A DNA stretch of 55,702 nt, the filler included, from Jimgerdemannia flammicorona (taxonomy: Eukaryota), in the NCBI GenBank assembly GCA_003990765.1. It is 2 parts of 2 records of this genome, joined end to end, with 100 filler letters (N's around TTAATTAATTAA, not from the genome) between each part and the next. Parts side by side here need not be neighbours in the genome. Positions count along the whole stretch, not along the records: positions 27,903 to 55,702 come from RBNJ01000601.1; 1 more part is not named here. The stretch is one strand, 5' to 3'. The notes under the pieces were generated by a model. It did no database searches, was not told the origin of the DNA, and saw nothing but the letters and a program-made list of their open reading frames with translations. The stretch's first letter is position 1. Each line of letters opens with the position of its first letter. The translations under genes and the position numbers were made by a program. Of the stretch, positions 13,421 through 51,438 are shown one piece after another.

Positions 13421-13508
13421 ATTAATTTAATTTTTGAGATATATATATATATATAGATAAACAGATATATCAAATGGATTTTTCTAATCTATATAATATA
13501 GTATGAGA

Positions 13509-18310: not shown

Positions 18311-18341
<31 letters not shown>

Positions 18342-18360
18342 TACACATGTACATGCAAAC

Positions 18361-23939: not shown

Positions 23940-24045
23940 GAAGCTGGGGAGAGGGAGCTAGCTGCTGAACATGTCTTGGACTTAGTGCAGGAGGAGCAGA
24001 ATGTGGACTTTTAGAGGATGGGATCACGATTTAACATTATTCCTT

Positions 24046-27729: not shown

Positions 27730-27802
27730 GTGGAGAGATAACTGTATTTATAGAGATAGATGGACATAATAAAGGATGGGAGTCCAAGTGACTATAAAAA
27801 AA

Positions 27803-27902
27803 NNNNNNNNNNNNNNNNNNNNNNNNNNNNNNNNNNNNNNNNNNNNTTAATTAATTAANNNNNNNNNNNNNNNNNNNNNNNNNNNNNNNNNNNNNNNNNN
27901 NN
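27803..27902. other. Artificial contig spacer (N44-TTAATTAATTAA-N44)
   Basis: A symmetric 100-bp gap with a six-frame stop linker. This is an assembly/scaffolding artefact. Confidence 0.95.
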
Positions 27903-28460
27903 GTCAGCAAATCTGCCACCAACTCCTCCCATCTTGATAACTTTTCCCGGATCCCTATCTGTCACCCCTCCTCAAAAACAAAGAGCCAATGTCCAGCCAA
28001 CCCCACCCACACTGCCACAATCCAACCTACAGTAAGCCACTGATTGCCAACCCCTCCCACAAGTCTAGACTCCAGATCTTCCCAACGACCTCTCTCCCCA
28101 TCTGGTCTCCTCTCAACCCCAAGGCGGTCCCCTACAGCAATCCAAAAGTCACCCAGAACCTCACACTCCCCCAGCCAATGTTCAGGTATTTGCACAAAAC
28201 CCCCAACCTGCCCAACATTATAGCACTCCTCACAATCCAGCTGACCTCCAACCACCAGATGCCCAGCACGGAAGTTCAACATAACATTCCTCCGCAACAT
28301 CCGCCACCATACTACCCAGAACTTGGGAGGAAGCCACCGCCGGACCTCTGTACTCCAAGACCAGATTCTTGTCCAATCCCACCCTTCACCAATCCTCACC
28401 GCCTGCCAGCTACTCGGCCAAAGATCCTGGCCAATCCGCCGCTGACACTCCACCCCATCT
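27903..28460 (-). mobile_element. 5'-truncated copy of the same Tx1/L1 LINE (ORF2 C-terminus)
   Basis: ORF 27962-28453(-) is highly similar to the 27127-27513(+) region: RRWLPPKFWVVWWRML, CEECYNVGQ, GLAGHWLFVFEEG. Confidence 0.9.
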
Positions 28461-28679
28461 CCGTATCACATGGTCTTTCTCAATGGCTTCAGGTGGAGCA
28501 AGACATGGGCTTGGTGGATAGCATTCGTCAATGGTAGGGGGATGTGGTGGGACCTTTTACCCAATAGCACTCAGTTGGAACAGTCTTGGTTGAGATACAA
28601 ATAGACTGGGTGCTAGTGGTGGAGTACTGGGGTAATGTACTGGACACTGCTGAGGTGTGCTGGTGCTCTTAATCAGATC

Positions 28680-28717
<38 letters not shown>

Positions 28718-30655
28718 GGACCTAGGACACCTCATCAACCAGACTGAAATCCACACAGACCCCATGAAGATTGAGGCTGTTGCAGCCTACCCAAGACCCA
28801 GAACAACTACAGAAGTCCATGCCTTCCTTGGACTGGCCAGCTACTACAGAAGGTTCATCAAAGGATACTCTAATATTACAGCACCTATCTATGAGCTACT
28901 GAAGAAGGAGACCAAATTCGAATGGACCAAGGAATGCCAAGAAATCTTCAATGAACTCAAGACCAGGTTGACCCAAACACCTATCCTCAGAAGACCAGAT
29001 TGGAATCTAGAATTCATCCTGCAGACAGATGCAAGTGCTATAGGACTTGAAGCAGTTTCAGCTCAGAAGAAAGATGGACATGAATATGTCATCTCCTATG
29101 TAAGCCAAGGTACCTATAGAGTAGAACAGAACTATGAGTCATATAAGCTCAAATGCTTAACAGTAGTTTGGGCAGTAGACAAGTTCCACTACTACCTAGC
29201 CAGGAAATACTTCACTATTTAAACAGATTATTCTGCTCTTGTCTGACTATTCCACACTCTGAACCCCAAAGGAATATATGCCAGATGGATCTACAGGCTG
29301 TAAGAGTATGACTGTACTGTTAAGTACCACTCAGAAAGAACTAACACCAATGCTAATGCACTCTCAAGAACACTCCAAAACACCCCCATCAAGACTATTC
29401 AATATGAATAAGGAGCTATACTATGGATTAATCAGCTACCTTGGGCAGCAGAAGATGCCCAACCACCTCAAACCCTGGACAATCACTATCATCAACTGGA
29501 CTTGGAAACAATTTGAACTAGATAACACTATACTCAGAAAAGGAGGAAAGCTAGTAATATCTAAATACAAGAAGTATCAAGTAATGAAGGAAGTACATAA
29601 GCAAGGATATCTAAGAGGAATCAATATATACAATAAGGTAAGAAGAACTATATGGTGGTCCAAGATAGAAGAAGATCTGTGCCAATTTGTCAAAGAGTAT
29701 GACAAGTACCAAAAACAGAAATAAGATCAGTAAGATCAGATACCTGGGTCATCAAGAATTGAGCCTATCTCCTTCCACTACATCACAATGAATATTATTG
29801 GGCCACTACCAGTAATATTATCAGGAAACCACTATATTATAGTTATTGCAGACCTCTTCACCAAATGGATAGAGACAGAAGCATTACAAGAAGCCAATGC
29901 CCTCTCTATAGCCAACTTCCTGCACTAAGAAATCAGCTGCTACTATAAGACACCAAAACAAATCACAACAGACTGTGGCACAGAATTTGTCAATGGATTC
30001 CATGAGATAATATATCAGAAATACAAGATCCAGCACATCAAGACCACTGCATACTACCCTCAAGGAAATAGACAGATAGAGAGAACCAACAAGACCCTCA
30101 AGAACATTCTGGTGAAGATCACAGAGACATATGAGAATTGGGATAGCTATCTCCCAACTGCCCTCTCTATCCTATGAGACATACAGTCACAGAGTACACA
30201 CTTTACCCCAAGAGAACTGCTCTTCAGAGAAGAAGATTCTGATAGAACCTCAGCTACAAATCTAGACCTATCTTGGAGATAGGTTGATGCAGAAATCTGG
30301 AGGCTACACCAAATCAGGAAGAAGGCTGAAGATTATATTATCAAGTCACAAGTACTGATAAGAAAGAATGTGGAAAAGAATTACAAGACCCTAGAACTCA
30401 TTCAAATCAGAGAAAAGGTCCTATTGTATCAAAATATAGTAGAAGCCTCATGGTCATGAAAACTGGAGCCCAAATGGGAAGAACCCTTCTATGTGCAAGA
30501 TATCAAGGGAACTACCTTCTGGCTTAGAAAAATCTCAGGGACCATACTGCCTACTATGGTATATAGGAACAGACTCAAGAAGTACCACAAACCTATATAA
30601 GAGAAGCAAAATATGATGACTGCCCATGAGGTTCTAGTCTGCAAATCATAACAGC

Positions 30656-32010
30656 ATGTCCCATAACCAACAAGCTATCTGTCTGGACCATTCTCTAAGA
30701 GATATAGCACCAGTAACTACTCATCTGTGAGACTTTCAAAGCCAGAGGAGTTTGAACCATCAACTGATTGATCAAGATCAGAATCAGGCCCTTGCTCTAT
30801 ATGAAGGGAGTGACTCTTCACCATTATGCCAAAATATATAGAGAAGATGCTAGCCCATAAATACCACTTTTCGACCCCTTGCCAGAGGTTATGGGATCAT
30901 CAAATTTTTCAAGACTGAACCAATGAATAAGGATACTTGAGAAGATCCCTATTCAGAAGGAAGATATAATGGTGACCCCAGAATGATGACATCAGCACAG
31001 GAGACAGTCTTTCCTTACAAGCTATCAGATTGAAGTACAAGAAGATCATATGACATATGAGATGAGCAATGATGACCAATTTTGAGTCATTGTGACCACG
31101 GTACAAGCATCCTGAGGAATATAAAAGAAGGATCAAGGAACTGCAGTAATAGCAACCAACAAGACCCACCAATTCCAAAATAGCTCAAAGACTCACTACA
31201 AATGAAATGCCTGCTGTCTGCCAAATCTCAAGATCAAGAAACCACCAAGGTATCTCAGTCAAAGAAAGGATGTTCCAAGACATCAGAAGAGCCATGAGGA
31301 CCTACTCAAGAAGGACTCCTAGTGTCAACCTGGGTACCAGTGACTCTTATCATTATATTCTCTACTGCTGTGAAATGGAAACAAGGATCACCATTGCTAC
31401 CAAATGCCTTCAAATGTAGTAGAAGTACAAAATAGAAAACCTCCTCTGCTGAGAGTTCCTATAGGCCAGCACTCAAGAGCTACAAGATGCCACTCCTATG
31501 GATATATGCAAAATGAGGATAGCTAAGAAGATCCATCAAATCTTCAGGCATGTACTATAGTCAATCCCCAACTTAAAGTATGTTAGAGTCTCAGATTTCA
31601 GAGATCTATCATCTTGCCATATCAATACACTAGAAGCCAGGGTGGCTACAGAAGCTCAGTCCACTATTACCCTCAATAGTGATGAAGTAGAAGACTTCTG
31701 GCATCTTATCCTCCAGGACAACCCAGACCAATTCCTGCAAGGATTGATCTCAGTATTCCAAGGCCCAAGTATCCAGATTAGACCTCCCCAAGACCCCACA
31801 TTTGTTCCCTATTTTGTGGAAGAGAACCTCATAGACTGGAGAGCTCCAGACCTCCTTCCCACCACTGAATGTAATATCAAAGTACATGAGATGTGCAATC
31901 TACATGATGACAATGATGAGACAGATGAGATGTTCATAGACCTCATCTCCTTTGAAGACATCCTGATCTCTGATGATGAAGCCTCTATGGTCTTGAACAT
32001 TCTGCTCTAA
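30656..32010 (+). pseudogene. Accessory ORF3 downstream of integrase (about 450 codons, unknown function)
   Basis: ATG 4 nt after the pol stop. Reads through with TGA/TAG stops explicable as single transitions and one frameshift. Shares a 28-aa motif with ORF3 at 43786. Confidence 0.65.
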
Positions 32011-32018
32011 GTCTCTTA

Positions 32019-32146
32019 GTTACACTGAATAATGCCAGCACTAGCATTCTGAGGTAATGCAAAATTGTTCCAGTACTGGCATCTGATGTAATACTGAATA
32101 ATTCCAGCACTGGTATTCTGATGTGACACTGAATTATACCAGCATC
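32019..32146 (+). repeat. About four tandem 34-35 bp repeats in the presumed LTR U3
   Basis: Unit approximately ATGTAATACTGAATAATTCCAGCACTGGTATTCTG, containing palindromic CCAG(C/T)ACTGG. Confidence 0.75.
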
Positions 32147-32508
32147 CTGAACCTATACAACTATCAGTACCAACTCTGGAACTTAGCAGTTTTTTCTATC
32201 CTAGCATTTTATTTTAGTTATTGAAATTTATATTTAGCTTTATATCTTAGTAACCATTGAATTATATTTTGTATAAATACTCCTCTTATTTCCTCTGAAA
32301 TAAAGTCAGTTCTGGTTCACTTACATATACTTCTTTGCAAGTAATCTAAGAGATAACAAGACAGTTAAAGATAAGAAGTTTGAGGACTATAAGACCTTGG
32401 GAAGGCACTCCAATAAGAACTTGCTTATAACAAACTTGAGTTAGTCTAAGAGATACACCTTGAAGAAAATCTGGCATATTTGAAGGACTCAGTGACCACT
32501 ATGTAACA

Positions 32509-33386
32509 CTATATAGAGAGTTGGCTGATCTTGGGCATCAAATATCTGTAAAGGTTTTAGCAGATTCTTAATACTTGTAGCAGACTCTCTGAGCTTTAGC
32601 AAGCTTTTCAGTAAGTACAGTTCTGGTATAGAAGACTGTTTTTTGAGTAGTATTAAGATGGAAAGAGAGATGGCTATTATAGATAAGTGAAAGAATAATT
32701 ACAGTAGACCAGTCAGATATTAGATTAGTAATAGTTATTAAGACTAGTATAGATACTATATCAGTGGAGCCTTCTGATTAGTACAGAGAAGTTAAGTAGT
32801 AAGTATTACTCTTGATAGCTCTCAGTAATATATAAGCTTAGACTCTAGTTATTTGAGATCATTGAGAGAGCCTAAGACTACTTAGATTAGATATTTAAGG
32901 TATACTCAACTAGAACTAAGAGCTGATATGATGATATAACTGAGATCTATAGACTTGAGTAGTGGGATATTAGAGATCTCCTCTCACTTTATATATAAGT
33001 TCTTCACTTATCCTATTGAGGAGAATCAGATTCTACCTACTGTTTTATATCTTTTATAAGAGTTTTTCTTTACCTGTTTCTCTATTTGAGATTGTAGAAA
33101 CTTTGCTATCTGGCTCTGATATAGCCTTATACATACATTAGAGTTTTAGGTATATATATTTAGTTATTAGTATATGGTTATTTTTTCTCTAGTAGTAGAG
33201 AGAGTATGATATGCAGAATGAGGTATAGGTTTTTTATTCTTGCTATATCTGATATAGTAGAGCTATTAGACAATAGTAAGCTTAGATTTATAGAGGTATA
33301 GCATTCAGGAGAGAGGTGGGGTTTTGGTCTATATAGTCTAGATTTTCTTCTAATAAAAATCTATAGAACATAGAGTCATTTTTTTT
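32509..33386. repeat. Unclassified interspersed repeat (copy 2, inverted, heavily C>T/G>A mutated)
   Basis: Inverted homologue of 1-842. Cut on the left by the Gypsy LTR ending at 32508; ends in a T/A tract on the right. Confidence 0.75.
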
Positions 33387-33404
33387 AAAAATAAAAAAAT
33401 ACTA

Positions 33405-33574
33405 CTAAACTTATATAAAAACAACTTAGTATCTAGAGTGAATAAACCTCAGATCAAAGAAGTTTGAGCCTCATCCTAGTAGTCTGATAATGAGATCAGA
33501 TAGATACTATCTATGACTCTGAGAAGTTAAGAAAATTTACTATACTTCTCAGATTATATATTTACTATATTATA
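33405..33574 (+). repeat. 3' half of an LTR related to Gypsy family 2
   Basis: ATCTAGAGTGAATAAACCTCAGATCAAA is identical to 38756-38783. Terminus TTACTATATTATA resembles CCACTATATTATA at 44757-44769. Confidence 0.6.
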
Positions 33575-36313
33575 TCATCTTATATAATTATCTATCTATA
33601 TCTATCTCAATCATCTATCCATCTCAATTATTTATCTCATTTATTATTATTATTATTATTATTATAGTATTATAAAATTTATATAGTAATTTTCTTTTTA
33701 AAAAATATAAAACTGGTAGAAAATCTTATATATATAAATATTAAATTTATAGAGAGATATGAAAAAAGTTTAAATAAAAATTCTGACTCTGTCAAAGTTG
33801 TAGTAAATCAAGCCATATTACAGAGTTTTTTTTTAATATATTTTTTTCTCGTTATGTTCTATACCTTCGAAGTTTACTAAAATTTATTGAGGTTTATAGA
33901 TTTGCCGCACTGTACATGTGGCCAGCCAGACCAGCACAGTCTAACCAATACACTACAACACTAGCTTACATTGAAGTATTATAAGTATTATATATATATT
34001 TTTTAAGGATCAAAACGCTCAGTGATTCGCAGGTGGTCACATCCATCAACTCGTCAACCTCCTCGCTCGCAAGACCCTTCAATCCTGCGCCGAAAGACCG
34101 ACAAATATGTTTGAAGAGTTGTTTTTTTTGGGATTGAGAAACGAGGCGACGTTGCTCGTTTTGATTTTGCAAACCGAGTGGTCGAAAGATGGTAACATCC
34201 CAACAGGAAATCATTTGACTGTATACCTCCATCTCGGCAATTACACTGGTTGGACTCGGTAAACCGATCCTCATGCCACTATTGCATCAGGAATACACAA
34301 CGGGGCTCTCTTAATTTTCGTGGTGTATGATATAAGGTGACTACAAGTAATTAAACTTCCGCACTCCACCGCCTATACACCTTCCCTAAACACCCTGCTA
34401 CAGCGACGAACCGCCGAAATTGGTCCCTCTGCCAAGGTCATCCAGAGTATTACAGTGATACTGCTTTCCCATCGTTCTGTAGTCCATCGCCGTACTGCGG
34501 TCGTCTGCGGTCCATCGTCATTTTGCGATCTGCGGTTCATCATCGTTCTGTTTTCTGTGGTCTATAGTCATTCAGAAGTCCTCGGCGTTTTGTGGTCCAT
34601 CGTCGTCTTGCAGTTTATCGTCACCTACCATCGTTCGGCAGTTAACCATCGTTATGCGTCGAAAAACGGCCCTATCTGTATATACATCCTTGATTATTAA
34701 TATTAAGGCCCACGTAAGGGTGCCAAGTACCTATAGAAAGGCCTCGAGAGCCGCACGGCTTGCGTACAGTTCGTACGGGTTCTGAGGGCCCTGGCACAAT
34801 GCAAATCACGCCATTGTTCTACTGCCTTAATTTCGACGCGTCAAGCTTTACAACAGTACACACAGTACAGTATATACACAGCCCTATCCGTGAATCTTGT
34901 TACCATGACCTGTCAACTTCGTACAAGTCTTCTTGTGTAGCCGCCTACCTTGAGTTTCCGTATGCCCACTTGACTCGAATGTTTCTGTATACTGTGTTTC
35001 GAATCACCATATCGTCTCACAATGGTGTTATGCAACTTCTCGCTTTAGATTCTCTTATTCACATACTTTCGGATATTGCCATACAGGTAATTTCTTCGGA
35101 ACCTCTATTGATCGCCGCGACCGCAGTTATATTCGTCAGCTTATCGGGGAACCGAACGGATGCTGAGCCTCAAGTAATGGTAAATGACGTGTGTTGAGAG
35201 TTTTGCTAGGAGTTCGTGCGGTACAAGAAGAAAAAAAAAAAAATTCCGGCTTATAAGTGGACAATCCAGTCGTCGACATGCTCTAGAAACAGGTGGGGTG
35301 TCGGGGAAGGTGTCAGCTTGTTTGAGATCCTGATTTCGCTTTGTAGGATGGTAGGGTGACCGTGGCGGCAGTCGATGTCTTCATATATTAACTGTGGCTG
35401 TGGTGGCATGTATTGCGATGAGGTAACTAATAGGCAGACACAGGAGACGGAAGTGAATGAAGATACTAAATTCTACTACACGAAACACACTACCACCCTA
35501 AGAGTTATTTTTAAGTGATTTCAGAGATGAGCATCCTTAAAAAAATATATCGTATACTCTTCCCTATGTTGTTCAAGTGGTGATATGCATATGTCGCCTT
35601 TGCTTCGCTTTCAAAAATTTATTTCACCGCTTGACGTTCGTTGTGTTCGCTTTTAAACTTAATTTTGGCTATCATGATACGATCGATTGCGTTCCATGTC
35701 AAAAATCGGAGGCCTCGAATGGCACAGCGTGTTCAAAAGGAATTGCCCGTCAGAAATCCATTGTGACCCATAAGCGAATTGTGACCTATACGATTGCTGA
35801 CAATATCTCACAATACCCAGTCGTGACTTCCGAAAGCGATCTGAAAAGCGTCCATAGAAACCAACTTTATCGGCACACCCGCTGCAAGCTGACATCTACC
35901 AACGAGCATGTAGAGGCACGGTTCAGCACGTTAACGATATCCAAAACGTTAATACGCCGCTAGGGGGTGCGGTCTTGGATCCGTTTCATTCCATTTGGCC
36001 TATGATGACGTAAGTCTCGCTTTGGTAAGATAGCAGTGGGAATGAACTGGTAACCGAAATGATAAACAAAATCAATTCGGCGCCAAATACCGCTAGCGGC
36101 GCCATTAAAGAAGAAATATGCCTCATTCCAGTTAGACTCACCAACCGATTTATATAGGTTTATAGATTTGCGGCGTGGGAACGGGATGAGTCAGACGAAT
36201 TATTCCTAAGCCACAACAGACCGTTACCGATAACTACATTAACCCGACCCCTTGCCAATCAGAAAATATTTCAACAGTGAAGAGTTAACTAGCCCCACTT
36301 CATCTGCCACAAA

Positions 36314-38205
36314 ATGTACACAATCAACCCCGCAGAACAACCCATACTCACCGCGACGGCAATCGTCCTCCTCAGCTACCTCCTGATCCGCGCAACATCA
36401 AGTCGCAAGCCCAAGCTGGTCGTCCAGCCCTGGAACAACATACCCATTCTCAGCATCAAGGAAATGATTTATCCGCCCCAAGAGGATCCGTGGAAGAAGC
36501 TCGTCACCATCGCCCAGGACCCTCGAAATTACCCGCTCTGCGCCATCCCCGGCATCTTCAGCGGAGCGCCAAATCTGGTCGTCAATGATATTGACATGAT
36601 GAAGGAAGTATTTATCCAAGGACAATCCTATGGCCACGGCGAGCAAAAAATGGCGAGACCTAGAGACTTAATCACCATGAGCTATTACCTCTTTGGAGGA
36701 CGGCACATCGCCAACTCAGACGGTCACGTAAGTCATTTGGTTTCCGTTATGATTTCTGGAATTTTTAACAATGGTCCTTCATTTCACTGTCTAACAATTG
36801 ACGCTCCCCTCCACTGACTGCGCACAGGAATGGAAATGGCGTCGCCAGGCCTATTCGCCACCCTTCCAGCCGAGATTCCTCGTTCCAGCCTTGCTTCCTT
36901 ATGCCATCGAACGCGTCCAAAAACTCAACGAAGAGCTTGCCAAACTCGCAGCCACAGGAGAGGCCGCGGAGTTGGATAGCGAGATGAGCCACGTTGCGTT
37001 CGACATTATTTGCAAATATTGCTTCGGTTATGCTGATGAGGAACTCGACTTCCAAGACGTCAACGGCAGGGAAAACCTCAAGGTAGGAGAATCAACCTTC
37101 ATCTTTCGCATGCGTGACTTTTTTTTTCCTTTCAAGGGGATCCAGAACCATTCTGGCCTTTTAAAATTGGAAATGTCATGAACATATCTCGCAGAATGAA
37201 TTCGTCGCCCTCTTCGGGAGCATCGCCTCCGTCTACCCCCGCATTCCCATTATCAAGCACACTGAATGGGGTCAGCGTCACTACAAGCCCGCCCGCGAGC
37301 GCCTTGACGCCTTTATCAATCGCGCCATTAAAAAATCCCTCGCCCAGCCCGACCTCTTCCTCGACAGCAATACCGATAAACCACGTTTCCGCCCTCTAAT
37401 TCACGAGCTTGCCAAGAATACCAACTTCGAGGAGGGTACCGATCATAGCCTCGGCAGGGAGATCCTTGCCACAATCTTTGCGGGACATGACACTACCTCG
37501 CATACATCTTCGTTCGCACTCGGTGCTATCGCCCAGCATCCTGAGGTCCAGCAGCGCCTTTTTGAGGAGATCAGGGGGCAGTTGGGACCTGACCCGATCG
37601 ATGTCGCTGCTTTGACAACTGAGTCGTTAGGAAGTATGAAGTATTTGACTGCAGTCATTAAAGAGGTCATGAGGATGTATCCGACCATCAATAACTCGTA
37701 TGTCGAGGCTCTAAAGGATACCACTTTAGGCGGAATGGCCGTCCCAGCTGGTACGTTATCCTAAACTCCCTCGCTCTTGCGCGTACAATGTCGTATTGAA
37801 CGTGACCTTGCAATCGCCAATCCCTTTCCTAACCATTTGCTACCTTATCACAATTCAGGAACCATCATACTCGCCAACTTCCGCGGCGCCCAGATGAACC
37901 CCAACCTCTTCCCGAACCCCGAAAAGTTTGACCCGACCCGTTGGCTCGAACACGCCGACGCCGACATCTTCCAGGATGTCGACCACATTGCGACCAGATC
38001 CTCCAAACCTGAGCTCGTCTTCGGCCTCGGTCCGCACGCCTGCCTCGGCCGTAATCTCGCCTGGCTCGAGCTTCGCATTTTGATCGCCGCAGTCGTGAAC
38101 AAGTTCAAGCTCAAGCTCAAGGAGGGAACCGCACTCGATACCTATACGTTTTTAACCATGTTTCCCAAGGATGGTGTGTGGGTTACGTTGAAGGAACGTG
38201 TTTAA
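36314..38205 (+). CDS. Cytochrome P450 (paralog A), intact, 523 aa; exons 36314-36727, 36828-37082, 37195-37750, 37859-38205
   Basis: GT-AG introns give an open 1572-nt CDS. N-terminal hydrophobic anchor, WKWRR (C helix), AGHDTT (I helix), KEVMR (ExxR), FDPTRW (PERF-like), heme motif FGLGPHACLG. Confidence 0.95.
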
Positions 38206-38475
38206 ACTGCCGGAGTCGGAGTCTTAAATGTCCTTGATGGTTGGGGTTGGGATAGATCTAAAATTGAGCTTCGACCAAGTTATAAACATTTCCTTTTCTC
38301 TCCAAAATGATTGTGGCATGCACACAACTCTTAAATAATGATTATTTAATTCCAATAAGTAGTTTATTCCCTAACTATTAGTTCTTGAATTTTTTTTTTT
38401 GTAAATAAATCACAAATGATATGTATATGCATTTTATAAAAGCACTACTATTTAGTACTCAATTGCTCTAACTGT

Positions 38476-38953
38476 TGTGATGGTTGATCTGAATTAGTAA
38501 TATGAATTAGAGGAATAGACATTTGATTATAGTATCTAAATCTGATTCCCAAATATAGCCTTGCAAAATAGCAGTCATTTCAGTAGTGTAGAAAACTTTA
38601 ACAACTGCTAAGATTCTGCAGATGTTGAAATATTTGCAATTATTGAAATCCTAGCAGATATTAAAAGATTTGATACTTGTAAAGAGTGACTTACAGAAAA
38701 TATAGTCATAACTTAGTCACTCTATAGCTGGTAAACTTGTATAAATATTCCTAATATCTAGAGTGAATAAACCTCAGATCAAAATAGTTTAAAGTAAAGT
38801 AAAAGCAAGAGAACTAGTAAGCCTGTAGGTAGATATACTTGAAACTCATCTACTCCTATATTCTGAGAACTCTGTAGAGTTAAAGAAGATTAAGTTTTTA
38901 AGATACATATAAAATCTGATATACTTATATAGTTATATATCTAATTATGCTAA
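38476..38953 (+). repeat. 5' LTR of Gypsy family 2 element
   Basis: Starts TGTGAT. Direct repeat of 44287-44769, differing mostly by transitions. Confidence 0.88.
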
Positions 38954-40689
38954 TACTATCTGAGACTAAGTAGCTAAAGTAATCTTTATGAAAGAAATTT
39001 ACCTAGAGATAGCCATGGCTATTTGCTTATTATTAGTAGTTCTGGACCTACTATAAAAGACCACCTATACTTAGTAATACTAAATAGCCAGACACTCATA
39101 AGACTATATAATAGAAAGAGTCATAAGAGTCAGAATTAAAGCACTTAAAGTAATTAGTATAATCTCTACCACAATACTTAATTGAAATACACTACAGTCA
39201 AAAGCTATAGAACAATAAAGAAATAATGACCCTATAGAGAAACTTGTTAAGAGATTTGCTAAAATAACTACCTATCTAAGAGAATGATAAAGAAAATCAG
39301 AGGAAGAAACTATTACTTAGTTCAGAAGTTTGCTGTTATCTCAGACAAGAAGAGAGATACCTGTTATACTTATAGAGAAAAAGACCACTACTCATATAAA
39401 TATATAAGTAAGATCAAACACAGGATCTAGCTAAATAATGTTACTCAAAATAAGGAATAGGCCAACACTATCATATTTGAGAAGATTAGATAATCTGATG
39501 AAGAAGAATAAGAGGTCAATCTTATATAGACTACTAAGAAAAATATCTATAAAGAACCCTATAATTAACTACTAGAGAGATTCAAAAAGAATCTAATAGA
39601 AAAATATATAGAGACTACTATAGAAAACTAAGCTAAAGAAATAGATCAAGATATAGAGTTGAAACAGACTGTTCAAGATATTATTTGAGAAACTACTCTA
39701 GCTAGTGAGAGAGAAAAAGAGAAGAAGCTTTATAAGACTAAGATCTTTAAGTATAATATCTTCTAGGATCTCAACTAACAAAAGATCAATGCAACCTTTG
39801 GCTAGCTGGCAGAAATCTATATTTAGATAGCAAATGAGATTTGAACTTGCTGAGATAATTAAAAATTAAGACTGAAAGATAACTGAAACCAATAATATTC
39901 AAAAAGACTCTAGAGAAGAAAGTAAAGATAATTACAAGACCTCTGCCTATATAATCTGTCAGATTGAAGATAGAGTCTTTAATGCCATCATTGATACTGG
40001 AGCAAAAAAATGCCTCTTTAGCAAAAGAAATGGCAGACCACTTAGGTTAGGAGGTTGAAAAAGTAATAAAATTGGTATTTGTTATAGTAGATAGTATAAG
40101 AACTATATTTCTGAGAAAGATCTAAGATATTTCTATCAAGTTTGGAGAAATAACTATTCCAGTAGATATAATTGTGACTAATACAACCAACTATAACATT
40201 CTTATTAGCAATCAATAGCATTATAAAGCTAGAGTAATAATTGACCTAAATACCTAAAAGTTATAGATCATCTACTATAGACAGAAGCTACAAATTTTCA
40301 TTAATATTAATAAAGAAGTTCTACTCAAAATAGAGAAATAAGAAAGTAAGCAAGAAGAATCTTAGATAATATCTATTTAGAAAAAAAAAAAAAAAAAAAA
40401 AATTTTAAAAAAAATTTATTAAAAAAAAAAAAAAAAAAAAAGATTGGATAGATGAGTAAAGAAGACTGATATAAGAAGATTACTGAAAGATATATATTAC
40501 AAAGAGTCTATTCTCATAGGATCAGAATATACTATATAGAGTATATCAATAATTACTACTAGTATACTATTAGAGTCAAGAAAATCTATTATCAAAAAAG
40601 AGAAAAGACTCTCAAAGAACAAAAAAGGACAAAAAAAGAGAAGAATGATAAATTATTAATCCTTCTGATGAATAGTAATAATAAAGAAG

Positions 40690-41107
40690 AAATTAAGATC
40701 AAGATTCAGAAGATCTACTCTAATATAGTTCTAATAAAAGATATATATATATCAGAGAATATAACTAAAATATATATCACTATAGTAGAGAAAACCATAC
40801 TTGAATCTCAAACAATCACCCTACTCACAACTGGTCTGAAGATAACTATTCCAAAAAACTATATTAAACTCACAAGACAAGAAGTAATCTGATCAGGAGC
40901 AATATCACTATTGAAGGAGAAGTCATTGATTCAGATCATATTAGAGAAGTACTACTCATTAGTAGAAATCACAATTCTACAATCTCATTTCTCATCAAGA
41001 AGAACTGATTGGTGCAGATTTTGATCTTTTCAGTCTTATAGCCAAAGATTAAAAAAATTAAGAAGTTGGAGGAAACAGACAGAGAAAAGAAAGAATTTAG
41101 ATTTATA
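40690..41107 (+). pseudogene. Retrotransposon-encoded dUTPase domain, between protease and RT, hypermutated
   Basis: TTGLKITIP, TRSNL (motif II), EGEVIDSDHIRE (motif III), LVQILI (IV). LEETDREKKEFRFI reverts to RGxxGFGST (motif V) using only G>A/C>T reversions (GAA<GGA, AGA<GGA, TTT<TCT, ATA<ACA). Confidence 0.82.
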
Positions 41108-43785
41108 GAAGAGGAGTTTTTATCAGTACTAAGATTACTAAGCTAGACTACAAGAAAGAGAAAACTATGAATAAGTATAGCTATACAATTAGAAATAAAT
41201 TCTCACTCAAGAAGATACTCTATGAATTCAAGGATATTCTAGCTATGAATTTCAAGGATATTAAGAAAAAGACCTCAAACTACTACTATGATATAGATAT
41301 AGGAGATATTAAACCAATTTATCAAAAAGTAAAGTTAATTCCATTAGTCTATTGAGAATGGCTCAGAGAAGAAATCAAGTAGATAGAAGAAACTAGTATT
41401 ATCAAAGAAATCAGTAGTCCTTAGAGTTCACTAGTTATACTAGCTCCAAAGAAAGAAAGCAAACCTGGAGAATTTGTCTTAAGACTCTGTTCCGATTACA
41501 AAAAGCTCAACCTGATTACTAAGAAAGATCACTAACTACTGCTACTCATTAGTAACATTCTTATAATCCTAGGAGATAAAGTGTAGTATTATAGTATTTT
41601 AGATCTATACTTAGAATTCTACCAAATTAGCCTTACAGAAGTAGTATGTAAAAAGTCAGTCTTTATTATCTCAGATAGAATCTATGTCTACTTACAAATA
41701 TTATTCAAAATATATAATATACCAGTAAGCTTCTAGTGAATGATAAATAAAATCTTCTACTATGATATAGAAAGATAGATAATGGTTTATATAGATGATA
41801 TAATTATTTACAGTAAGACATCAGAGAAGTATCTATAATACATCCAGCAGATAATAGAGAAGCTAAGGAAGTATAGCTTATACATCAAGCCTAAGAAGTA
41901 CAAATTTGTAGAAATTGAGATTTTTTATCTTGCTCACATTATCAATTAGAATAGAATATATACAGACTCTCTCAAGATTCAAGAGTAGCAGTATATCTAA
42001 GACCCACTATCATTACAGAAGCTCAAGTCTTTGTAAGACTTATCTTATACTATTATAGATTTATTAGAGAATTTTTCAATATTGTAGACCTAATCTATAA
42101 ACTCAATAAGAAGGACATTAAGTTTCAATAGACTGGTAGATAACAGAAAGTATTCAATGAGCTCAAGATCAGACTGATCTAAGTACTAATCTACAGAAGA
42201 CCAGATTGATCTCAGAAATTTATTCTATAGATAGATGTGAGTGTATAAGAACTAGGAGTATTTCTGACCCAGTAGAAAGACAAAGTAGAGTATATCATTA
42301 TATATCTCAGCTGAGAAACCCAAGGAGCTAAAAAGAAATATAAATCATACAAGTTAGAGTGCCTTGCAGTCATCTGAGCTATAGAAGAGTTCTACTACTA
42401 TCTTATTAGAAGATACTTCACTATTCAGATAGACTATTCAGTCCTTACTTAGCTACTGACCACTAGATAATCTAAAGAAATTTATATCAGATTAATTATG
42501 AAGTTACAAGCCTATAATATAACTATTATATACTGCTTCAAAAGAATAAATGCTAATATAGAAGCTCTTTTATAAATACTTTAAAGAACTTTCAATGCAT
42601 AAACCAACTATAAATAAGAAGCTCTATTATAGAATTACCACCTATCTGAGATAGTGAAAGATGCCCCAATATCCGGAAGAATAGATATAAATGATTATTA
42701 ACAGAACATAGAAACAATTCAAGACTGATAGAGAAATATTAAAAAAAGAAAAACTACTAGTTATATCTGAACAAAAGAAGAAGCAAGTAATGAAAACAGT
42801 ATATAAACTTAACTATTTAGAAGGAAAAAATATATATAATAAAGTGAGAAGAACAATGTGATAATTAGGAATGGAGAAAGATATCAGATGATTTATCAAA
42901 ACCTATAATAAATACTAGAAATAGAAATAAGATCAATAAAATCAGATTCTGAGATCAGTATATATATATATAACTAGTACTCTTTATATATCATATAATA
43001 GATATAATTGGCTCTCTACTCTCGAATTTGACTGATAACCAATATATTATTATTATTATAGATTTTTTTTACAAAATAAATAGAAGTAGAACTTCTCAAG
43101 AAAGCTAATATATAGTCAATTACCAATTTCTTCTATAAAGAAATTATCTATCAATTTAAGACCCCAATATAAATAACTATAGATAGAGGAATAGAATTTA
43201 TAAACCAGTTCTTTAAGGTTCTCTATAAGAAGTATAATTTGAACTGGAGTCTATTACTCTCAGAGAAATGAATAAGTAGAAAGAACTAATAAGACTCTCA
43301 AGAACATTATTGCTAAGATCTATAATAACTATAAAAATTGAGATTACTAGCTGCCAATAGTATTATCTGCTCTCTAGGATATTTGATTATAAAGTACCTA
43401 TTTTATCTCTTAAGAAATACTATATAGTAAAGAAAGTCCTCAAGAAATCTTATCATCTAATGAAGATACTATATGGAAATACATAGATAAAGTAATATGA
43501 AGACTATACCAAATTAGAAAAAAGGTCAATGATTATATAACTAAGATACAGACTCTATAATAGAATAATGCAGAAAAGATTTACAAGCTCTTGAAAATTA
43601 TCAAGATAAGAGAGAAAGTTCTAGTATATTAGAATATAGTAGAAGCCTCATAGTCTCAAAAACTAGAGCTCAAGTAGAAAGAATCTTATCTTATACAAGA
43701 TATAAAAGAAACTATCTTTTGGTTTAAAAACTATTAGATACAATTATCTCTATTACTATCTACTGAAACTAGCTCATAAAGTATT

Positions 43786-44190
43786 ATGACTAACTAATAA
43801 AGAAATGCTACAGCTCTTAAGATCACCAGTACTATATAATGAGCCATAGAAAGATAATAGTGTTTCACTAAGCCACCAACTATAGAGAAATTCTTTAACA
43901 GTATTCAGAGTATATGTAGTATAGATATACTTATAATAAAATTCACATTTCAAGGCCTACTAGAACTAGACCGAGTTCTGAAATACTTCAAGTTGAGATA
44001 GCTACTAAACTTAAAGTCAGAAATGAAAAAAGAAAATTGAATTAGAGAGTATCAGCTCTCTTATATACAGATTACCATTACTAAGAGAATATATAAGTTA
44101 TTTAAAGAGAATGAGCCAGCTCTAGCTCATTTCTGAGAAGTAGCTCTAGGAGACTTTAGATATATCAAGAGACAATATTGAGATATATAA
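43786..44190 (+). pseudogene. Accessory ORF3 downstream of integrase (at least 135 codons)
   Basis: ATG overlaps the end of pol; single frame with transition-type stops. Contains ITKRIYKLFKENEPALAHF*EVALGDFR, which aligns without gaps to ORF3 of the element at 28720. Confidence 0.6.
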
Positions 44191-44286
44191 TAATATAAAT
44201 TATACAATATAAGAAGATTTAACTGATTAAAGGTTGGGAGTTTGAATAAAATATTTCAGAGATAAATTATCTATTTAAGAGATAGT

Positions 44287-44769
44287 TGTGATAATTTATC
44301 TGAATTAGTAATATAAATCAGAAGAATAGATATTTAATTGTAGTACCTAAATCTGATTTCTAAATATAGTATAGCTTTGAAAAATAGTAGTTATTTCAGT
44401 AATATAGAAAACTTTAACAACTGCTAAGATTCTACAGATGTTAAAATATTTGTAATTATCAAAATTCTAGCAGAGGTTAAAAGATTTGATACTTGTAAAG
44501 AGTGACTTATAGAAAACATAGCTACATATAACTTAGTCACTCTATAGCTAGCAAATCTATATAAATATCTTTAGTATTTAGACTGAATAAACCTCAGATC
44601 AAAATTGTTTAAAGTAAAGAGAAAGTAAGAGAACTAGTAAGCCTGTAGATAGATATACTTCAAACTTACCACTTTTATATCCTGAGGACTTTGTAAAGTC
44701 AAAGAAGATTAAGTTTTCAAGATACAAAAATCTGATATACTTATATAGTTATATATCCACTATATTATA
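44287..44769 (+). repeat. 3' LTR of Gypsy family 2 element
   Basis: TGTGAT start after a purine-rich remnant. Ends CCACTATATTATA (cf. CCACTATGTAACA at 32508). Confidence 0.88.
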
Positions 44770-45829
44770 TTATATACTTATATATATATATTAACTATAA
44801 ATAATTCTAAATATACTCTAAGATTATAGATAATAATTATTTCTTATAATATTATATCTGATATTTTAAAGATTAGAGATATTTAAATCTAAATCAGAAA
44901 ATAAATTTTATCTAATAATTATTATTATTATATTTAGATAATCTATTATAAATATACATATATATATACTATGAGTATATTCTTAGCTATATGGACTACT
45001 AATTATTTATTTGTATCAATTAAAATATATATATATATAGCTTTTTTACTATCAGAAGAGATAAGATTATAAATCTATACTTAATATCACTATAAAGATA
45101 GAGTTAAAACTACTAAGTAGAAGAACTAGTTGCAAAATAATAAAATAAAAATTATTTCTAAATTTTGTATTTTAAATATTATTCTTTATAATATAATCTA
45201 AATTTAGCTACTATCTAGAAAACTTTACTAATTAAGAGAAATCTGCTAAATCTACTATATTATGCAAAAACTATACTATTTAGAAAGTTATTAAAATTAT
45301 CTATTATATATAAAGAACTCACATACTTAAAAGTTGAAAACTACTCAATATTTTATTACTTTTTGACAAAGTAACTAAGGGCTTAAGTCAATCTACATAG
45401 TTACTCTAACTTTGTAATTTTTCTCTATTGAGCTGATATGTTATACTAGATAGATTAAGTATAGCTAATATATATTTAATTATATTTAATCAACTATATA
45501 AACTCTTTAAAAATATTTATATTTTATATAATCTTTAAACTAATAAGATTATTTTATATATTATAATATAACAAATTTATTAGTTAAATAGATATAATTT
45601 ATATCAAGTTAATATAATGATATATGTAGAGTCTATAAATGATAAGAAAGAGATACTATATATCAATACTTTATAAATTGGCAATATATATTAAAATATA
45701 TAAAAATACTATTTACTAATAATATCTGAGAAATTGACTTTATCAAAAAGGAAGCATTCTATTTTGGATTTTATATACCTAAATATGTATTGAAAAATAC
45801 AAATAAATATCGATACTTAGTATAGCTAG

Positions 45830-46290
45830 CTATATCTCTTCTAGATTATACTATATCTGGATGCTCTAAGACCCAATATCTTCTTAAAGATCATCAGCAC
45901 CTGTTCATACAGTGGTTACACCTGGCTGTGCTTGCCCTGTCATTTTTAGAAGAAAGTTGGATTATTCAGCCCCTCACAGCCAAATTGTTCAAAGATAATG
46001 TCATATATGGGTGCTCCGACCCCAACACCTTCTCTTTAATTACCAGCACCCATTTGAACAACAGTTCTGCCTTGTTGTATATACTTGCCCTGGCGGTTGT
46101 AGAACCCAGCCTGATTGTCCAGAGACGATGCCGTGTCTGGGTACTCTGATATGTAAAGTCGCTCCGCTTTGTCGTACATACCATAGCTTTTGTAGAACCG
46201 CCAAGATTTGTGCTTGGGTGTTCTGAACCTAGGACCTCCCCACGGACCCACGGATCGCCAGCGCCTGTTGGCAGAATCCGACGTACATCA
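45830..46290 (-). pseudogene. TPR-repeat (kinesin-light-chain/NLR-type) gene remnant
   Basis: Fragments QQALAIR..VLGSEHPST, EYPDTASSLDNQAGFYNRQGKY and KAELLFKWVLVIKEKVLGSEHPYMTLSLNNLA in shifting frames. Decays into AT-rich DNA on the left. Confidence 0.8.
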
Positions 46291-47075: not shown

Positions 47076-47360
47076 AATGCGCTTGGCGAATTGTCCCTCC
47101 CTTTCGATTTTTCCGTTCGGGCGTATCAACGGGCCCACTCTTTTTCACCCAGAATCCTTTGCATACCAATGAATTGAAACAGTTTCACAAAAATTAACCC
47201 AATTGCTGTCCCATTCCTCGACATGGGAAGTTCATTCCAAAGCCACAATAGATTATTCCTCATATATACCTATATTAATACTGCTGGACCCGACGCCTTG
47301 CCAAACTTCAGAAATCATAAACGGTGAAGAGCTAGCTAGTTATACACTATCACTTGCTAC
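46463..47360 (+). repeat. Upstream region duplicated with P450 paralogs B and D (counterpart 53136-53975)
   Basis: Colinear blocks such as GTGACGAGACGGTTGGT, ATAATGAATTGTGGA, CCGTAAGCGAAT and GCTTGGCGAATTGT occur in both. Confidence 0.85.
47029..47074. repeat. (CT)23 microsatellite upstream of P450 B
   Basis: Read directly. The counterpart upstream of paralog D (about 53764-53782) is much shorter. Confidence 0.95.
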
Positions 47361-49262
47361 ATGATGTACAAAATAAATCCCGCAGAAAAACCCATACTCA
47401 GCGCGATGGCAATCGTCCTCCTCAGCTACCTCTTGATCCGCGCAACAACAAGTCGCAAACCCAAGCTGGTCGTCCAGCCCTGGAACAACAGACCTATTCT
47501 CACCATCAAGGAAATGATTTACCCGCCCCAAGAGGATCCGTGGAAGAAGCTCGTCACTATCGGCCAGGACCCTCGCAATTACCCGCTCTGCGCCATCCCC
47601 AGCCTCTTCGGCGGAGAGCCAAATCTGGTCGTTAATGATGTCGACTTGATGAAGGAAGTCTTGATCCAAGGACAGTCCTATGGCCATGGCGAACAAAAAA
47701 TGGCGAGATCTAAAATTATAATCGACCTGAGTTACTACCTCTTTGGAGGATGGCACATCGGAAACTCAACCGGTCACGTAAGTCTTTTGGTTTCTGTTAT
47801 TTTTTGCCTTTGAGCTGGATTTCTGGAATTGTTAGCAATGTCCATTCATTTCACTATCTAACAGTTGACGCTCCCTCCACCAACTGCGCACAGGAATGGA
47901 AATGGCGTCGCCAGGCCTATTCGCCATCCTTCCAGCCGAGATTTCTCGTTCCAGCCTTGCTTCCTTATGCCATCGAACGCGTCAACAAACTCAACGAAGA
48001 GCTTGCCAAATTCGCAGCCGCAGGAGAGGCCGTGGAGTTGGATGGCAGGATGAGTGATGTTACGTTCGACATCATTTGCAAATACTGCTTCGGTTATGCC
48101 GATGAGGATCTCAATTTCCAAGACGTCAACGGCAGGGAAAGCCCCAAGGTAGAAAATCGATCTTCCTCTTTCGCATGCGTCACCTTTTTTCTTTCAGTGG
48201 GATTAAGAGCCATTTTGACCTTTTAAAATTGGAAATGGTATCAACGACCCTTGCAGAATGACTTCATCGCTCTCCTTAAAGGCGTCGCCTCCGTCTACCC
48301 CCGCATTCCCATAATCAAGCACACCGAATGGGGTCAGCGTGGCTACAAGCCTGCCCGCGAGCGCCTTGTCGCCTTTACCAATTGCGCCATTAAAAAATCC
48401 CTCGCCCAGCCCGACCTTTTCCTCGATAGCAATACCGACAAGCCACACTTCCGCCCTCTAGTTCACGAGCTTGCCAAGAATACCAACTTCGAGGAGGGCA
48501 CCGATCATAGCCTCGGCAGGGATATCCTTGCTATAATATTTGCGGGACATGACACTACCTCGCATACATCTTCGTTCGCATTCGGTGCTATCGCCCAGCA
48601 TCCTGAGGTCCAGCAGCGCCTTTATGAGGAGATCAGAGGTCAGTTAGGACCTAGCCCGATCGATCTCGCTGCTTTGACGACCGAGTCATTGGGAAGTATG
48701 AAGTATTTGACGGCAGTAATTAAGGAGGTCATGAGGATGTATCCGATCCTCAATTTCTCATTTACCGAGGCTCTCAAGGATACAACTTTAGGCGGAATGG
48801 CCGTTCCAGCTGGTACGTTATTCAAAACTTCTCGGCTCCCTTGCGCGTACAATATCGTATTGAACGTAATTTTGCAATCCCGTTCCTAATCATTTGCCAC
48901 CTTATCACACATCAGGAACCCTCATAGTAGCAAACTTCCGCGGCGTTCAAATGAACCCCAAAATCTTCCCGAACCCCGAAAAATTTGACCCGACCCGCTG
49001 GCTCGAAAATGCCGACACCAACACTTTCCAGGATGTCGACCACAATGCGACCAAATCCTCCAAACCTGAGCTCGTCTTCGGCCTTGGTCCGCACGCCTGC
49101 CTCGGCCGAAATCTTGCCTGGCTCGAGCTCCGTATCTTGATTGCCGCAGTCGTGAACAAGTTCGAACTCAAGCTTAAGGAGGGAACCACACTCGATACTT
49201 ACACATTTTTCACTATGCTACCCAAAGATGGCGTTTGGGTCACGTTGAAGGAACGTGTTTAA
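47361..49262 (+). CDS. Cytochrome P450 (paralog B), intact, 523-524 aa; exons 47361-47777, 47894-48148, 48257-48812, 48916-49262
   Basis: Same exon sizes (255, 556, 347 nt) and motifs as paralog A (AGHDTT, KEVMR, FGLGPHACLG). The spliced frame is open. Confidence 0.95.
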
Positions 49263-50029
49263 ACCGCTGGAGACAAAGTCTTAAATATCCTTGGTAGTAA
49301 GGGTTGGGATAGACCTAAATAGACTTCAGTTTCGACCAGGTAATATGTCCTTTCGAGCTTTTCCTTTTTGCTCAAACATGGTTATGGATAGAATGTAACA
49401 CTTAAATAATGATCACTTAATTCCGATTATTCAAACATTTTTTCTGTAAATAAACCACCTTTGCACATTTCCAAAACAAACTGTCATTCGGTACTCAATT
49501 GCTCCAACTGTGCGCCTATGCCAACCGTAAGCGATCTCGAATTTATTTTAAAGCCACGGATGGCAATCGATCATTGTAATCTCATATCGGATTAAAAAAA
49601 GCATGTTCTCGCTGTCGGTCAGTTGTAGCTTTTTCACCGTCCCAGGGATGGAAGATTATAAACCTACGCCCAAGTGACTACAGAAGCAGAGTTGGAGCTA
49701 CTGAGTCGGGAAATTGATCGTAGGACAACTATAAAAATGATAGCATTTACGAAATCGCTGTATCGTGGTATAATCTAGGCTACTCCACAATCGCCTGACA
49801 TAACCCCCGGAAAATGCAATCTAAAATCCCACAACAAAAATTACGTAATGGCGCTACACAGCCATCCGGGAATCTGCGCATTACAGGGATCAACAACCTG
49901 CGATTGTGCATACAGTATTTGGGCTGCCTTCCTTGACTAGTGGCCTTTCCGGCAAGGTAGTGCCATCACAGAGTTTCGCAAAGGTCGTCTCTGACTTGGT
50001 GATTCGTGCTATCTTTACAACGCGGACAA

Positions 50030-50623
50030 ACATTTTTGGCGGTGGAAAGTCAAATCTATTCATCAATGATGTCGACCGGATGAAGGAAGTCTACATCCAA
50101 GGACAGTCCTATAGCCATGGCGAACAAAAAATGGGGAGACCTAGATTCGCAATCGACCTTAGGCTACTACTTTTTTGGAGAATGGCACATCGCCAACTCA
50201 ACCGGTCACGTAATTAATTCAAATGGATTCTGCTTCATTTTTTAGTTTTAGTTTTAGTTTTAGTTTTATTTACTTTATTTTATTTTGGAATTGTTAACAA
50301 GGGCTATTAATTTCACTATCTAATAATTGACGCTCCCTAACACTGACTGCGCACAGGAATGGAAATGGCGTCGCCAGGCCCATTCACCTCCCTTCTAGAC
50401 CAGATTTCTCGTTCCAGCCTTGCTTCCTTATGTCATCGAACGCGTCAACAAATTCAACGAAGAGCTTGCCAAATTCGCAGCCACAGCAGGATGAGCGATG
50501 TTACGCTCGACATTATTTGCAAATACTGCTTCGGTCATGCCGATAAGGAATTAGATTTCCAAGATGTCAACGGCAGGGAAAACCTTAAGGTAGGAAAATC
50601 AATATTAATATTTTGCAGGTGTG

Positions 50624-50658
<35 letters not shown>

Positions 50659-51438
50659 TGGGATTCAGAGTCATTCTGACCTTTTAAAAATGAAAATGAC
50701 ATTAACGACCCTCGCAGAGTGACTTCTCGCCCTCTTTAAAGGCTTCGCCTCCGTCTACCCCTGCATCCCCGTCATCAAGCACACCGAATGGGGTCAGCGC
50801 GCCTACAAGCCCGCCCGCGAGCGCCTTGATGCCTTTATCAATTGCGCCATTGAGACGTCACTCGCCCAGCCCGACCTCTTTCTCGACAGCACTACCGACA
50901 AGCCCTCAATTTACGAGCTTGCCAAGAAATCCAAGGGCACCGATCGTAGCCTCGGCAAGGACATTCTTGCCGTAATCTTTGCGGTATATGACACTACCTC
51001 GCATACATCTTCGTTCGCATTCGGTGCTATCGCCCAGCATCCTGGGGTCCGGCAGCGCCTTTTTGAAGAGATCAGGGCTTGGCTTCCTTGCGCGTACAAT
51101 ATCGTATTGAACGTAATTTGCAATCCCGTTCCTAACCATTTGTCACCTTATGACACATCAGAACCCTCATAGTAGCAAACTCCCGCGACGCCCAGATGAA
51201 CCCCAACATCTTCCTGAACCCCGAAAAGTTGGACCCGACCCACTGGCTCGAACACGCCGACGCCACCGCCTTCCAGGACGTCGACCACAAATGCGACCAA
51301 CTCCTCCAAACCTGAGCTCGTCTTTGGCCTTGGTCCGCACGCCTGCCTCGGTCGTAATCTCACCTGACTCGAGCTCAAGAGAACCACACTCGATACTTGC
51401 ACGATTTTAACAATGTGACGTTGAAGGAACGTGATTAA
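50030..51438 (+). pseudogene. Cytochrome P450 pseudogene (paralog C)
   Basis: Lacks the 5' part of exon 1. Has frameshifts, AGHD changed to AVYD, and a deletion removing the ExxR region and the third donor site (junction near 51077). Premature TGA after the heme motif. Confidence 0.92.

Follow-up and report, generated by a model that had tools for sequence, protein, structure and literature searches.

The stretch of DNA analysed here, hereafter the window, comprises 55,702 nucleotides (nt) of the fungus Jimgerdemannia flammicorona (GenBank assembly GCA_003990765.1) and consists of parts of two records joined end to end with 100 filler letters between them, the second part (positions 27,903 to 55,702) coming from RBNJ01000601.1. 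It holds the remains of Ty3/Gypsy retrotransposons, which we call A, A′ (an inverted partial copy of A), B and C, together with a non-LTR retrotransposon (LTR, long terminal repeat) and pieces of cytochrome P450 genes. In element B, the segment at 40701-41104, between the aspartic protease (PR) and the reverse transcriptase (RT), is very probably what mutation has left of a trimeric-type dUTPase domain that formed part of Pol. Element A carries its dUTPase in another slot, and we consider below whether the module entered the two lineages separately. Features lie on the plus strand unless stated otherwise.

A dUTPase remnant in a degraded Ty3/Gypsy element

Element B is an LTR element of ~6.3 kb (about 38474-44757), recognised by its LTR pair and its Pol domains. 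The 5′ LTR, which starts with TGTTGTGAT, occupies 38474-38941 and was found by blastn against the 3′ LTR at 44285-44757, which is also picked up as repeat families D17 and D19. The two are 85.3% identical across 477 nt by blastn, or 88-89% identical according to the repeat families, and they enclose an internal region as expected of Ty3/Gypsy elements; we saw no clean target-site duplication at the ends of B, where CTAAC faces CTATA. Near the 5′ end of the internal region, a probable relic of a gag zinc knuckle, CYTYREKDHYSYKY, can be read by eye in the translation at 39362-39403, its Cys codons having become Tyr codons, and a Pfam scan of the three plus-strand frames of 38900-44300, with stops read as X, gave no gag match at E ≤ 0.1. 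The aspartic protease follows at 39927-40356, spread over two frames and detected by tblastn with residues 63-205 of the intact polyprotein P0039, which hold the RVP_2 domain (combined E = 2.8e-12); it reads IIDTGA at 39987-40004, with DTG itself at 39993-40001. An A-rich low-complexity linker, read from the sequence at 40366-40442, lies between the protease and the dUTPase.

Downstream of the dUTPase segment, the RT extends over 41152-41982 (RVT_1, E = 6.7e-10; 31% identity to P0039 by tblastn), with YIDD at 41788-41799, and is followed by RNase H at 41985-42569 (PF17917, RT_RNaseH, E = 2.6e-19; PF17919, E = 9.7e-18). A degraded integrase (IN) region at 42570-43730 belongs to a longer segment, 41935-43730, with 63.9% nt identity over 1822 nt to positions 28728-30530 of element C, which contain Integrase_H2C2. 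The Pfam scan of the three frames of B gave no integrase match and no chromodomain match at E ≤ 0.1, and this part of B is so heavily degraded that the absence of a chromodomain carries no weight. From the positions of the Pfam, tblastn and motif matches, B is thus read as PR, A-rich linker, dUTPase, RT, RNase H and degraded integrase, so that its domain order is PR-dUTPase-RT-RNaseH-(IN). The dUTPase aside, this is the Pol order of Gypsy elements (PR-RT-RNaseH-IN), and in the RT tree described below B nests among Gypsy polyproteins.

The dUTPase itself is split over two frames. Its C-terminal half (40865-41104, in the frame whose positions are 2 modulo 3) is recognised by the Pfam profile PF00692, by our own profile hidden Markov model (HMM) and by hhalign, and its weakly recognisable N-terminal half (40701-40862, positions 0 modulo 3) by HMM, tblastn and hhalign. 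The match to PF00692 (E = 0.0051) spans nt 40880-41098, which correspond to positions 53-125 of a profile 129 positions long. Our own HMM, built from 407 dUTPase domains and run on all six frames of the whole window, returned just five matches at E ≤ 10, which fall in three places (A, A′ and B); in B it matched 40856-41098 at 19.9 bits and, collinearly and weakly, 40773-40862 at -1.5 bits. By hhalign against alignment A1, the C-terminal half aligned over 75 columns with a probability of 94.6% (E = 6.9e-8), while 15 columns of the N-terminal half aligned weakly, collinear with it in the profile (E = 0.023). A tblastn search of B with the dUTPase of A likewise gave two collinear high-scoring segment pairs, the one in the N-terminal half at E = 0.001.

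Motifs II-V, columns being taken from the 407 aligned domains, stand in canonical order at 40877-41104 in the translation of B: motif II as TRSNL (40877-40891), motif III as VIDSD (40922-40936), motif IV as KKN*LVQI (40997-41020; the asterisk is a stop) and motif V as TDREKKEFRF (41075-41104). Their substitutions are mostly C>T or G>A. For every column conserved at 60% or more, we counted whether the codon in B encodes the consensus residue or would do so once C>T and G>A changes are undone, and as the control we shifted this layout to 5191 further offsets within element B. In the C-terminal half, 34 of 52 conserved columns agree (16 identical and 18 reachable by transitions), whereas the control placements have a mean of 10.2, a standard deviation (sd) of 2.8 and a maximum of 20, with none of the 5191 reaching 34. 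The earlier note on this DNA had held that motifs II-V are recoverable after reverting transitions and lie between a DTG protease and the RT, and both the count and the flanking domains bear this out. The domain is dead: the open reading frame (ORF) is interrupted by a frameshift near 40860-40880 and by in-frame stops, such as the TGA at 41006 in the Arg column of motif IV.

Several results weigh against the identification as a dUTPase. The Pfam score in B, 17 bits, falls below the curated gathering score of PF00692 (22 bits), and only the C-terminal half is matched; because of this score we class B as a degraded relic rather than a working member of the family. The N-terminal half with motif I is barely detectable by HMM, transition test or hhalign: only 7 of its 16 conserved columns agree, as do those of 110 of the 5191 control placements, so that this half alone is not significant, and motif I was not recovered in B, its conserved D and L columns reading Y and I, neither of which transitions can reach. 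Among 14 intact dUTPase domains, eight, including that of P0039, have no tblastn match to B at E ≤ 1, whereas the other six do; this pairwise comparison says nothing about which dUTPase is closest. These points could be taken to mean that the likeness arose by chance from AT-rich sequence of low complexity. We regard such a chance origin as very improbable, since the other AT-rich blocks of the window gave no dUTPase HMM match at E ≤ 10 in six frames, no control placement attains the motif agreement of B, the hhalign probability is high, and the match sits exactly at the slot in which the intact P0039 carries its dUTPase. The HMM confirmation proposed in the earlier note was obtained with our own HMM and with hhalign, and fell short at the PF00692 gathering score.

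Mutation pattern of the element copies

Between about 38.4 and 46 kb the window has a G+C content of 21-34%, and that of B is about 27%. Transitions dominate the differences between copies: the LTRs of B differ in 57 places, 50 of them by transitions, and A differs from A′ in 190, of which 168 are transitions. In the direction from C to B, C>T (167) and G>A (140) changes outnumber T>C (40) and A>G (71). The dinucleotide indices of B are 1.15 for TpA/ApT and 0.97 for (CpA+TpG)/(ApC+GpT). Repeat-induced point mutation (RIP) is an established process in fungi, and the pattern in the copies found here is the signature expected of it. All copies found here are dead, with stops, frameshifts and differences biased towards C>T and G>A.

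Two other very AT-rich blocks, at 44758-46000 and 32000-34000, have G+C contents of 0.20-0.33 and RIP-like indices, with no recognisable coding content. Within the latter, 32587-33344 resembles the first 760 nt of the window on the opposite strand, with 66-73% identity.

A second Gypsy lineage with dUTPase in another slot

Element A begins with gag at 15726-16331 (Retrotrans_gag and Ty3_capsid, E about 2e-6; tblastn with P0001), which is followed by a dUTPase at 16406-16803 with a frameshift near 16705 and in-frame stops. This domain is clearly recognisable: it matches PF00692 at E = 6.7e-20 and 71.6 bits, above the gathering score of 22 bits, and our own HMM at 16406-16708 (98.3 bits) and 16705-16803 (14.5 bits). 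The aspartic protease lies at 16847-17167 (RVP_2, E = 1.8e-8) and the N-terminal part of the RT at 17325-17853 (48.6% identity to P0001 by tblastn), the element being broken off near 17.9 kb. The order in A is gag-dUTPase-PR-RT, with the dUTPase slot between gag and the protease.

The inverted partial copy A′, on the minus strand at 11384-13063, retains gag with some upstream sequence, as well as half of the dUTPase (its first), and is 72-76% identical to A by blastn. Its dUTPase half, at 11596-11384, scores 48.5 bits with our own HMM. A′ lies head-to-head with A, and with its half domain the dUTPase relics in the window number three rather than two. Two regions between A′ and A (13063-15657), at 13933-14281 and at 15311-15657, are self-complementary units about 250-350 nt long.

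No nucleotide similarity of the A region to B or to the LTRs of B was found by blastn. The claim that the window holds two Gypsy lineages with dUTPase in different slots is confirmed by the orders gag-dUTPase-PR-RT in A and PR-dUTPase-RT in B, by this lack of similarity and by the separate clades of A and B in the RT tree.

Element C (28722-30530), identified by blastn and by Pfam matches to RNase H and Integrase_H2C2, is a 5′-truncated relative of B that retains the C-terminus of the RT, RNase H and the zinc domain of the integrase. It is far less mutated than B and would be the better template for studying this family, though as a truncated copy it lacks the PR-dUTPase part. Short stretches at 33406-33601 also match the LTR of B by blastn.

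Protein relatives and reverse transcriptase phylogeny

A HMMER scan with the RT of B against 1.84 billion representative proteins returned 43,421 matches at E ≤ 0.001, and among the 150 matches listed two carry a dUTPase detectable by phmmer (P0039 and P0152), while P0144 gave a weak HMM match. A search with the dUTPase-PR region of A gave 13 matches, and searches with alignment A1 added polyproteins of transposable elements (TEs) and cellular dUTPases. P0039, whose source label reads dUTP nucleotidohydrolase only, is an intact polyprotein of 1044 amino acids with PR at residues 60-176, dUTPase at 396-522 (109.5 bits) and RT at 638-802, and is 33.6% identical to B over 429 columns of RT and RNase H. 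By Pfam architecture, the order PR-dUTPase-RT occurs in P0039, P0004, P0270, P0276 and P0279, and PR-dUTPase fragments are present in P0268, P0272, P0275, P0277 and P0280. The dUTPase precedes the protease (gag/dUTPase-PR-RT) in P0001-3 and P0152. Copia polyproteins with a dUTPase (P0010, P0012 and P0013) are of the RVT_2 type, and in P0010 and P0013 the domain lies between the integrase plus SH3-like domains and the RT.

The RT tree was built from 111 rows and 462 columns by a quick search, with support from the Shimodaira-Hasegawa-like approximate likelihood ratio test. B and C are sisters (99) and are joined by P0039 (98), which is their closest intact relative among the rows of this tree. 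The PR-dUTPase-RT order of B is inherited from an ancestor that it has in common with P0039. Element A groups with P0001 and P0002 (82) within a set of six rows (95), itself within a set of 14 rows (99) that mixes both slots, since A, P0001 and P0002 stand there beside P0270 and P0004 with the order PR-dUTPase-RT. For dUTPase presence, nine rows were scored as carriers, 56 as non-carriers (no dUTPase match, with 450 residues or more ahead of the RT) and 46 as unscorable; with this scoring, presence requires at least five changes on this tree, and the slot among carriers two.

Origin of the dUTPase domains

When the dUTPase of B was placed on a tree of dUTPases, it had an end branch of 5.41 and fell in no supported set, and for this reason it was left out of the careful tree search (59 rows, 139 columns). 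The dUTPase of P0039 was used in its stead, because the domain of B is too mutated to be placed. On the resulting tree, the dUTPase of A groups with P0001-3 (98/94). A larger set of 15 rows (97/84) unites the A group with P0039, P0004, the three Copia dUTPases, the archaeal P0331 and several short dUTPases; it is separate from the eukaryotic cellular dUTPases, and the branches inside it have no support (22-81). Within this part of the tree, P0010, P0012 and P0013 form a clade (99/98) near the A group and P0039. Members of a tight group with the order gag-PR-dUTPase-RT, P0268-P0280 and P0005, have very canonical dUTPases of about 150 bits, and this P0270 group (100/99) falls within the cellular dUTPases of eukaryotes, away from the remaining TE dUTPases. 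The caecilian sequences P0007-9, which resemble endogenous retroviruses, have a dUTPase clade of their own (100/100). Constraining all 21 Gypsy dUTPases to one clade was rejected by the approximately unbiased (AU) test (p = 0.0035), mainly because the P0270 group sits among cellular dUTPases.

Since the RT tree and the differing slots point that way, we lean somewhat towards separate events for the entry of the dUTPase module into the A and B lineages. The earlier note had gone further, to independent captures by both lineages and a recurrent host selection behind them. That the two lineages each captured a dUTPase from a different cellular or viral source, driven by recurrent selection in the host against uracil in cDNA, seems to us as probable as it is improbable. 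Besides the slots, it accords with the separate RT lineages of A and B, with dUTPase-less lineages between them and at least five changes in presence, with the rejection of a single Gypsy clade, and with the position of the P0270 group among eukaryotic cellular dUTPases while the A group and P0039 lie elsewhere; for elements of Postia, Phanerochaete and Tuber, the same conclusion is drawn in the available sections of Novikova et al. (2010, PMC2864245). For Gypsy dUTPases at large, the AU test and the count of changes favour more than one origin, and the phylogenetic comparison proposed in the earlier note has rejected one clade for all 21; for A versus B, a single clade of the A group with P0039 was compatible with the data (AU test, p = 0.345). 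Further results count against separate capture. The domain of B is itself uninformative, not only on the tree but also in a ranking of 251 dUTPases against the codons of B that allows for transitions, in which P0039 comes only 40th and the fractions (0.43-0.60, mean 0.484, sd 0.035) do not discriminate. The 10 TE dUTPases outside the P0270 group could also form one clade (AU test, p = 0.266), for a group that was named after the tree had been seen. The protein sample is biased as well, consisting of the best matches to the RT of B and to TE dUTPases, with no host dUTPase of Dikarya and no published fungal elements, and the count of gains and losses shares this bias because the proteins were chosen by those similarities. 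As to host selection, the copies of A and B are both dead relics.

A different history, to which we give a lower but still appreciable probability, would have one retroelement-borne dUTPase module acquired once or rarely and later shifted from slot to slot and from lineage to lineage, Copia included, as co-packaged retroelement RNAs recombined. The 15-row set, with the A group, P0039, P0004 and three Copia dUTPases together and apart from the eukaryotic cellular group, is in keeping with such a module, as are the AU result for the 10 TE dUTPases and the occurrence of both slots inside one RT clade (99), with A, P0001 and P0002 on one side and P0270 and P0004 on the other. The same set, however, also contains the archaeal P0331 and short dUTPases, its inner branches lack support, and the group that was tested is defined after the fact. 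Moreover, the dUTPase of A is just 37% identical to that of P0039, which is 45% identical to the non-TE dUTPase P0308, so that A is no closer, and the P0270 group has a clearly different affinity. A common and possibly retroelement-borne origin of the A and B dUTPases is compatible with the short dUTPase alignment. We think it unlikely that the dUTPases of A, B and some Copia elements form one retroelement-borne pool of non-host affinity, closest to short and archaeal dUTPases and traded between lineages and slots by recombination; if they did, two slots in one genome would mean exchange of a module among retroelements rather than repeated capture of a host gene. Separate entry into the A and B lineages, to which we lean, comprises both capture from a cellular or viral gene and transfer from another retroelement, which the data cannot tell apart.

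Proposed function

By analogy with retroviral dUTPases, for which we draw on the available sections of PMC2864245 and PMC5408684, the dUTPase domain of an active ancestor of B may have been released from Pol or have acted within it. It would have converted dUTP to dUMP and pyrophosphate close to the reverse-transcription complex. Such local hydrolysis could have kept uracil out of the cDNA and so have spared it from damage by uracil-DNA glycosylase and repair of the host. Exclusion of uracil would have been most important where cells do not divide and their dUTP/dTTP ratio is high. The role proposed for a B-type dUTPase is carried over from retroviruses.

Other features of the window

A stops and C begins at nearly adjacent points of the RT, residues 718 and 774 of P0001, and we considered whether they are halves of one element split by the intervening sequence. 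This was rejected, because their identities point to different relatives and their RT clades, both supported, differ: for A the identities are 52.1% with P0002 (165 columns) against 31.7% with P0039, and for C they are 51.9% with P0039 against 37.6% with P0002.

About 10.8 kb (17945-28700) separates the point where A breaks off from the beginning of C. This block opens with a satellite of 14-nt period at 17945-18222 and includes a non-LTR retrotransposon with Exo_endo_phos at 23986-24621 and RVT_1 at 25129-26163. A G-rich stretch at 22-28 kb has a GC skew of about +0.35 to +0.5. Near 20-21 kb a hAT-like translation can be seen by eye, and the ORF at 20777-21487 has no Pfam match.

Four related pieces of cytochrome P450 genes, 61-94% identical depending on the piece, lie at 36284-38381, 47334-49312, 50040-51613 and 53946-54917 and carry the heme-binding motif FGLGPHACLG. 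Element B and the AT-rich block at 44.8-46 kb sit between the first two of these pieces. The nearest Atlas clusters of the flanking P450 paralogues are P450s of Ascomycota, which is no more than a lead towards an ascomycete host.

Comparison with known dUTPase-bearing elements

Betaretroviruses and non-primate lentiviruses encode a trimeric-type dUTPase in their gag-pro-pol region, which is proposed to keep uracil from the cDNA. Its slot varies: betaretroviruses have it beside PR, lentiviruses between RNase H and IN. Element A resembles betaretroviruses in its slot beside PR, but these viruses and the lentiviruses differ from A and B in their vertebrate hosts, their env genes and their RT lineage. 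Among the proteins sampled here, P0039 has the same PR-dUTPase-RT-RNaseH order as B, with a dUTPase that is intact and full-scoring (109.5 bits). For annotators, B is of modest use as an illustration that a domain can be recognised after heavy C>T and G>A mutation by asking which conserved residues transitions can reach, and that a ruined copy can be represented by an intact relative such as P0039.

Outside the fungi, parallels include Juno, Vesta and TelKA of bdelloid rotifers, Ty3/Gypsy-like LTR elements that share the order PR-dUTPase-RT with B, according to the sections of Rodriguez et al. (2017, PMC5408684) used here. Unlike B, they belong to animal hosts, resemble retroviruses in having ORF3 and env-like genes, and are described as intact and recently active (PMC5408684). 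In the fungus Entomophthora muscae, PF00692 is reported to be enriched together with retroviral protease domains, in the available part of a preprint (bioRxiv 10.1101/2023.09.13.557621). An LTR element with dUTPase from an ascomycete, Tmt1 of Tuber melanosporum (Riccioni et al. 2008), is known to us as cited in excerpts of PMC2864245 and PMC5408684 and is compared here by its description; the latter cites Riccioni et al. 2008 for the placement between PR and RT, yet calls the hosts basidiomycetes. Our literature search found nothing on dUTPase-bearing LTR elements in genomes with RIP, a setting that is a matter of preservation and not of kind.

Other fungal Gypsy elements are among the closest known systems. 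The variable position of the dUTPase in such elements and the PR-dUTPase-RT arrangement itself have been in print since 2008-2010, as far as the sections of PMC2864245 used here go. In the Gypsy families of Postia placenta, the dUTPase occurs at either end of Pol (N- or C-terminus) or in the gap between PR and RT, and independent acquisition from different sources is described as apparent for fungal Gypsy dUTPases (Novikova et al. 2010, PMC2864245); the same source refers to earlier reports in chromoviruses of Phanerochaete chrysosporium (Novikova & Blinov 2008) and in the ascomycete Tuber melanosporum. PosPlaTy3-5 of Postia placenta and the Phanerochaete chrysosporium chromoviruses are, like B, fungal Gypsy elements with a dUTPase between PR and RT, a likeness drawn from their description (PMC2864245). 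Their copies come from basidiomycete hosts and are reported as putatively intact, whereas B and A have been ruined by C>T and G>A changes. The origin and purpose of retroelement dUTPases are a long-standing question that reaches beyond what one window can answer, and to the known pattern, in which the position of the dUTPase in fungal Gypsy elements differs by family, B and A add one more case.

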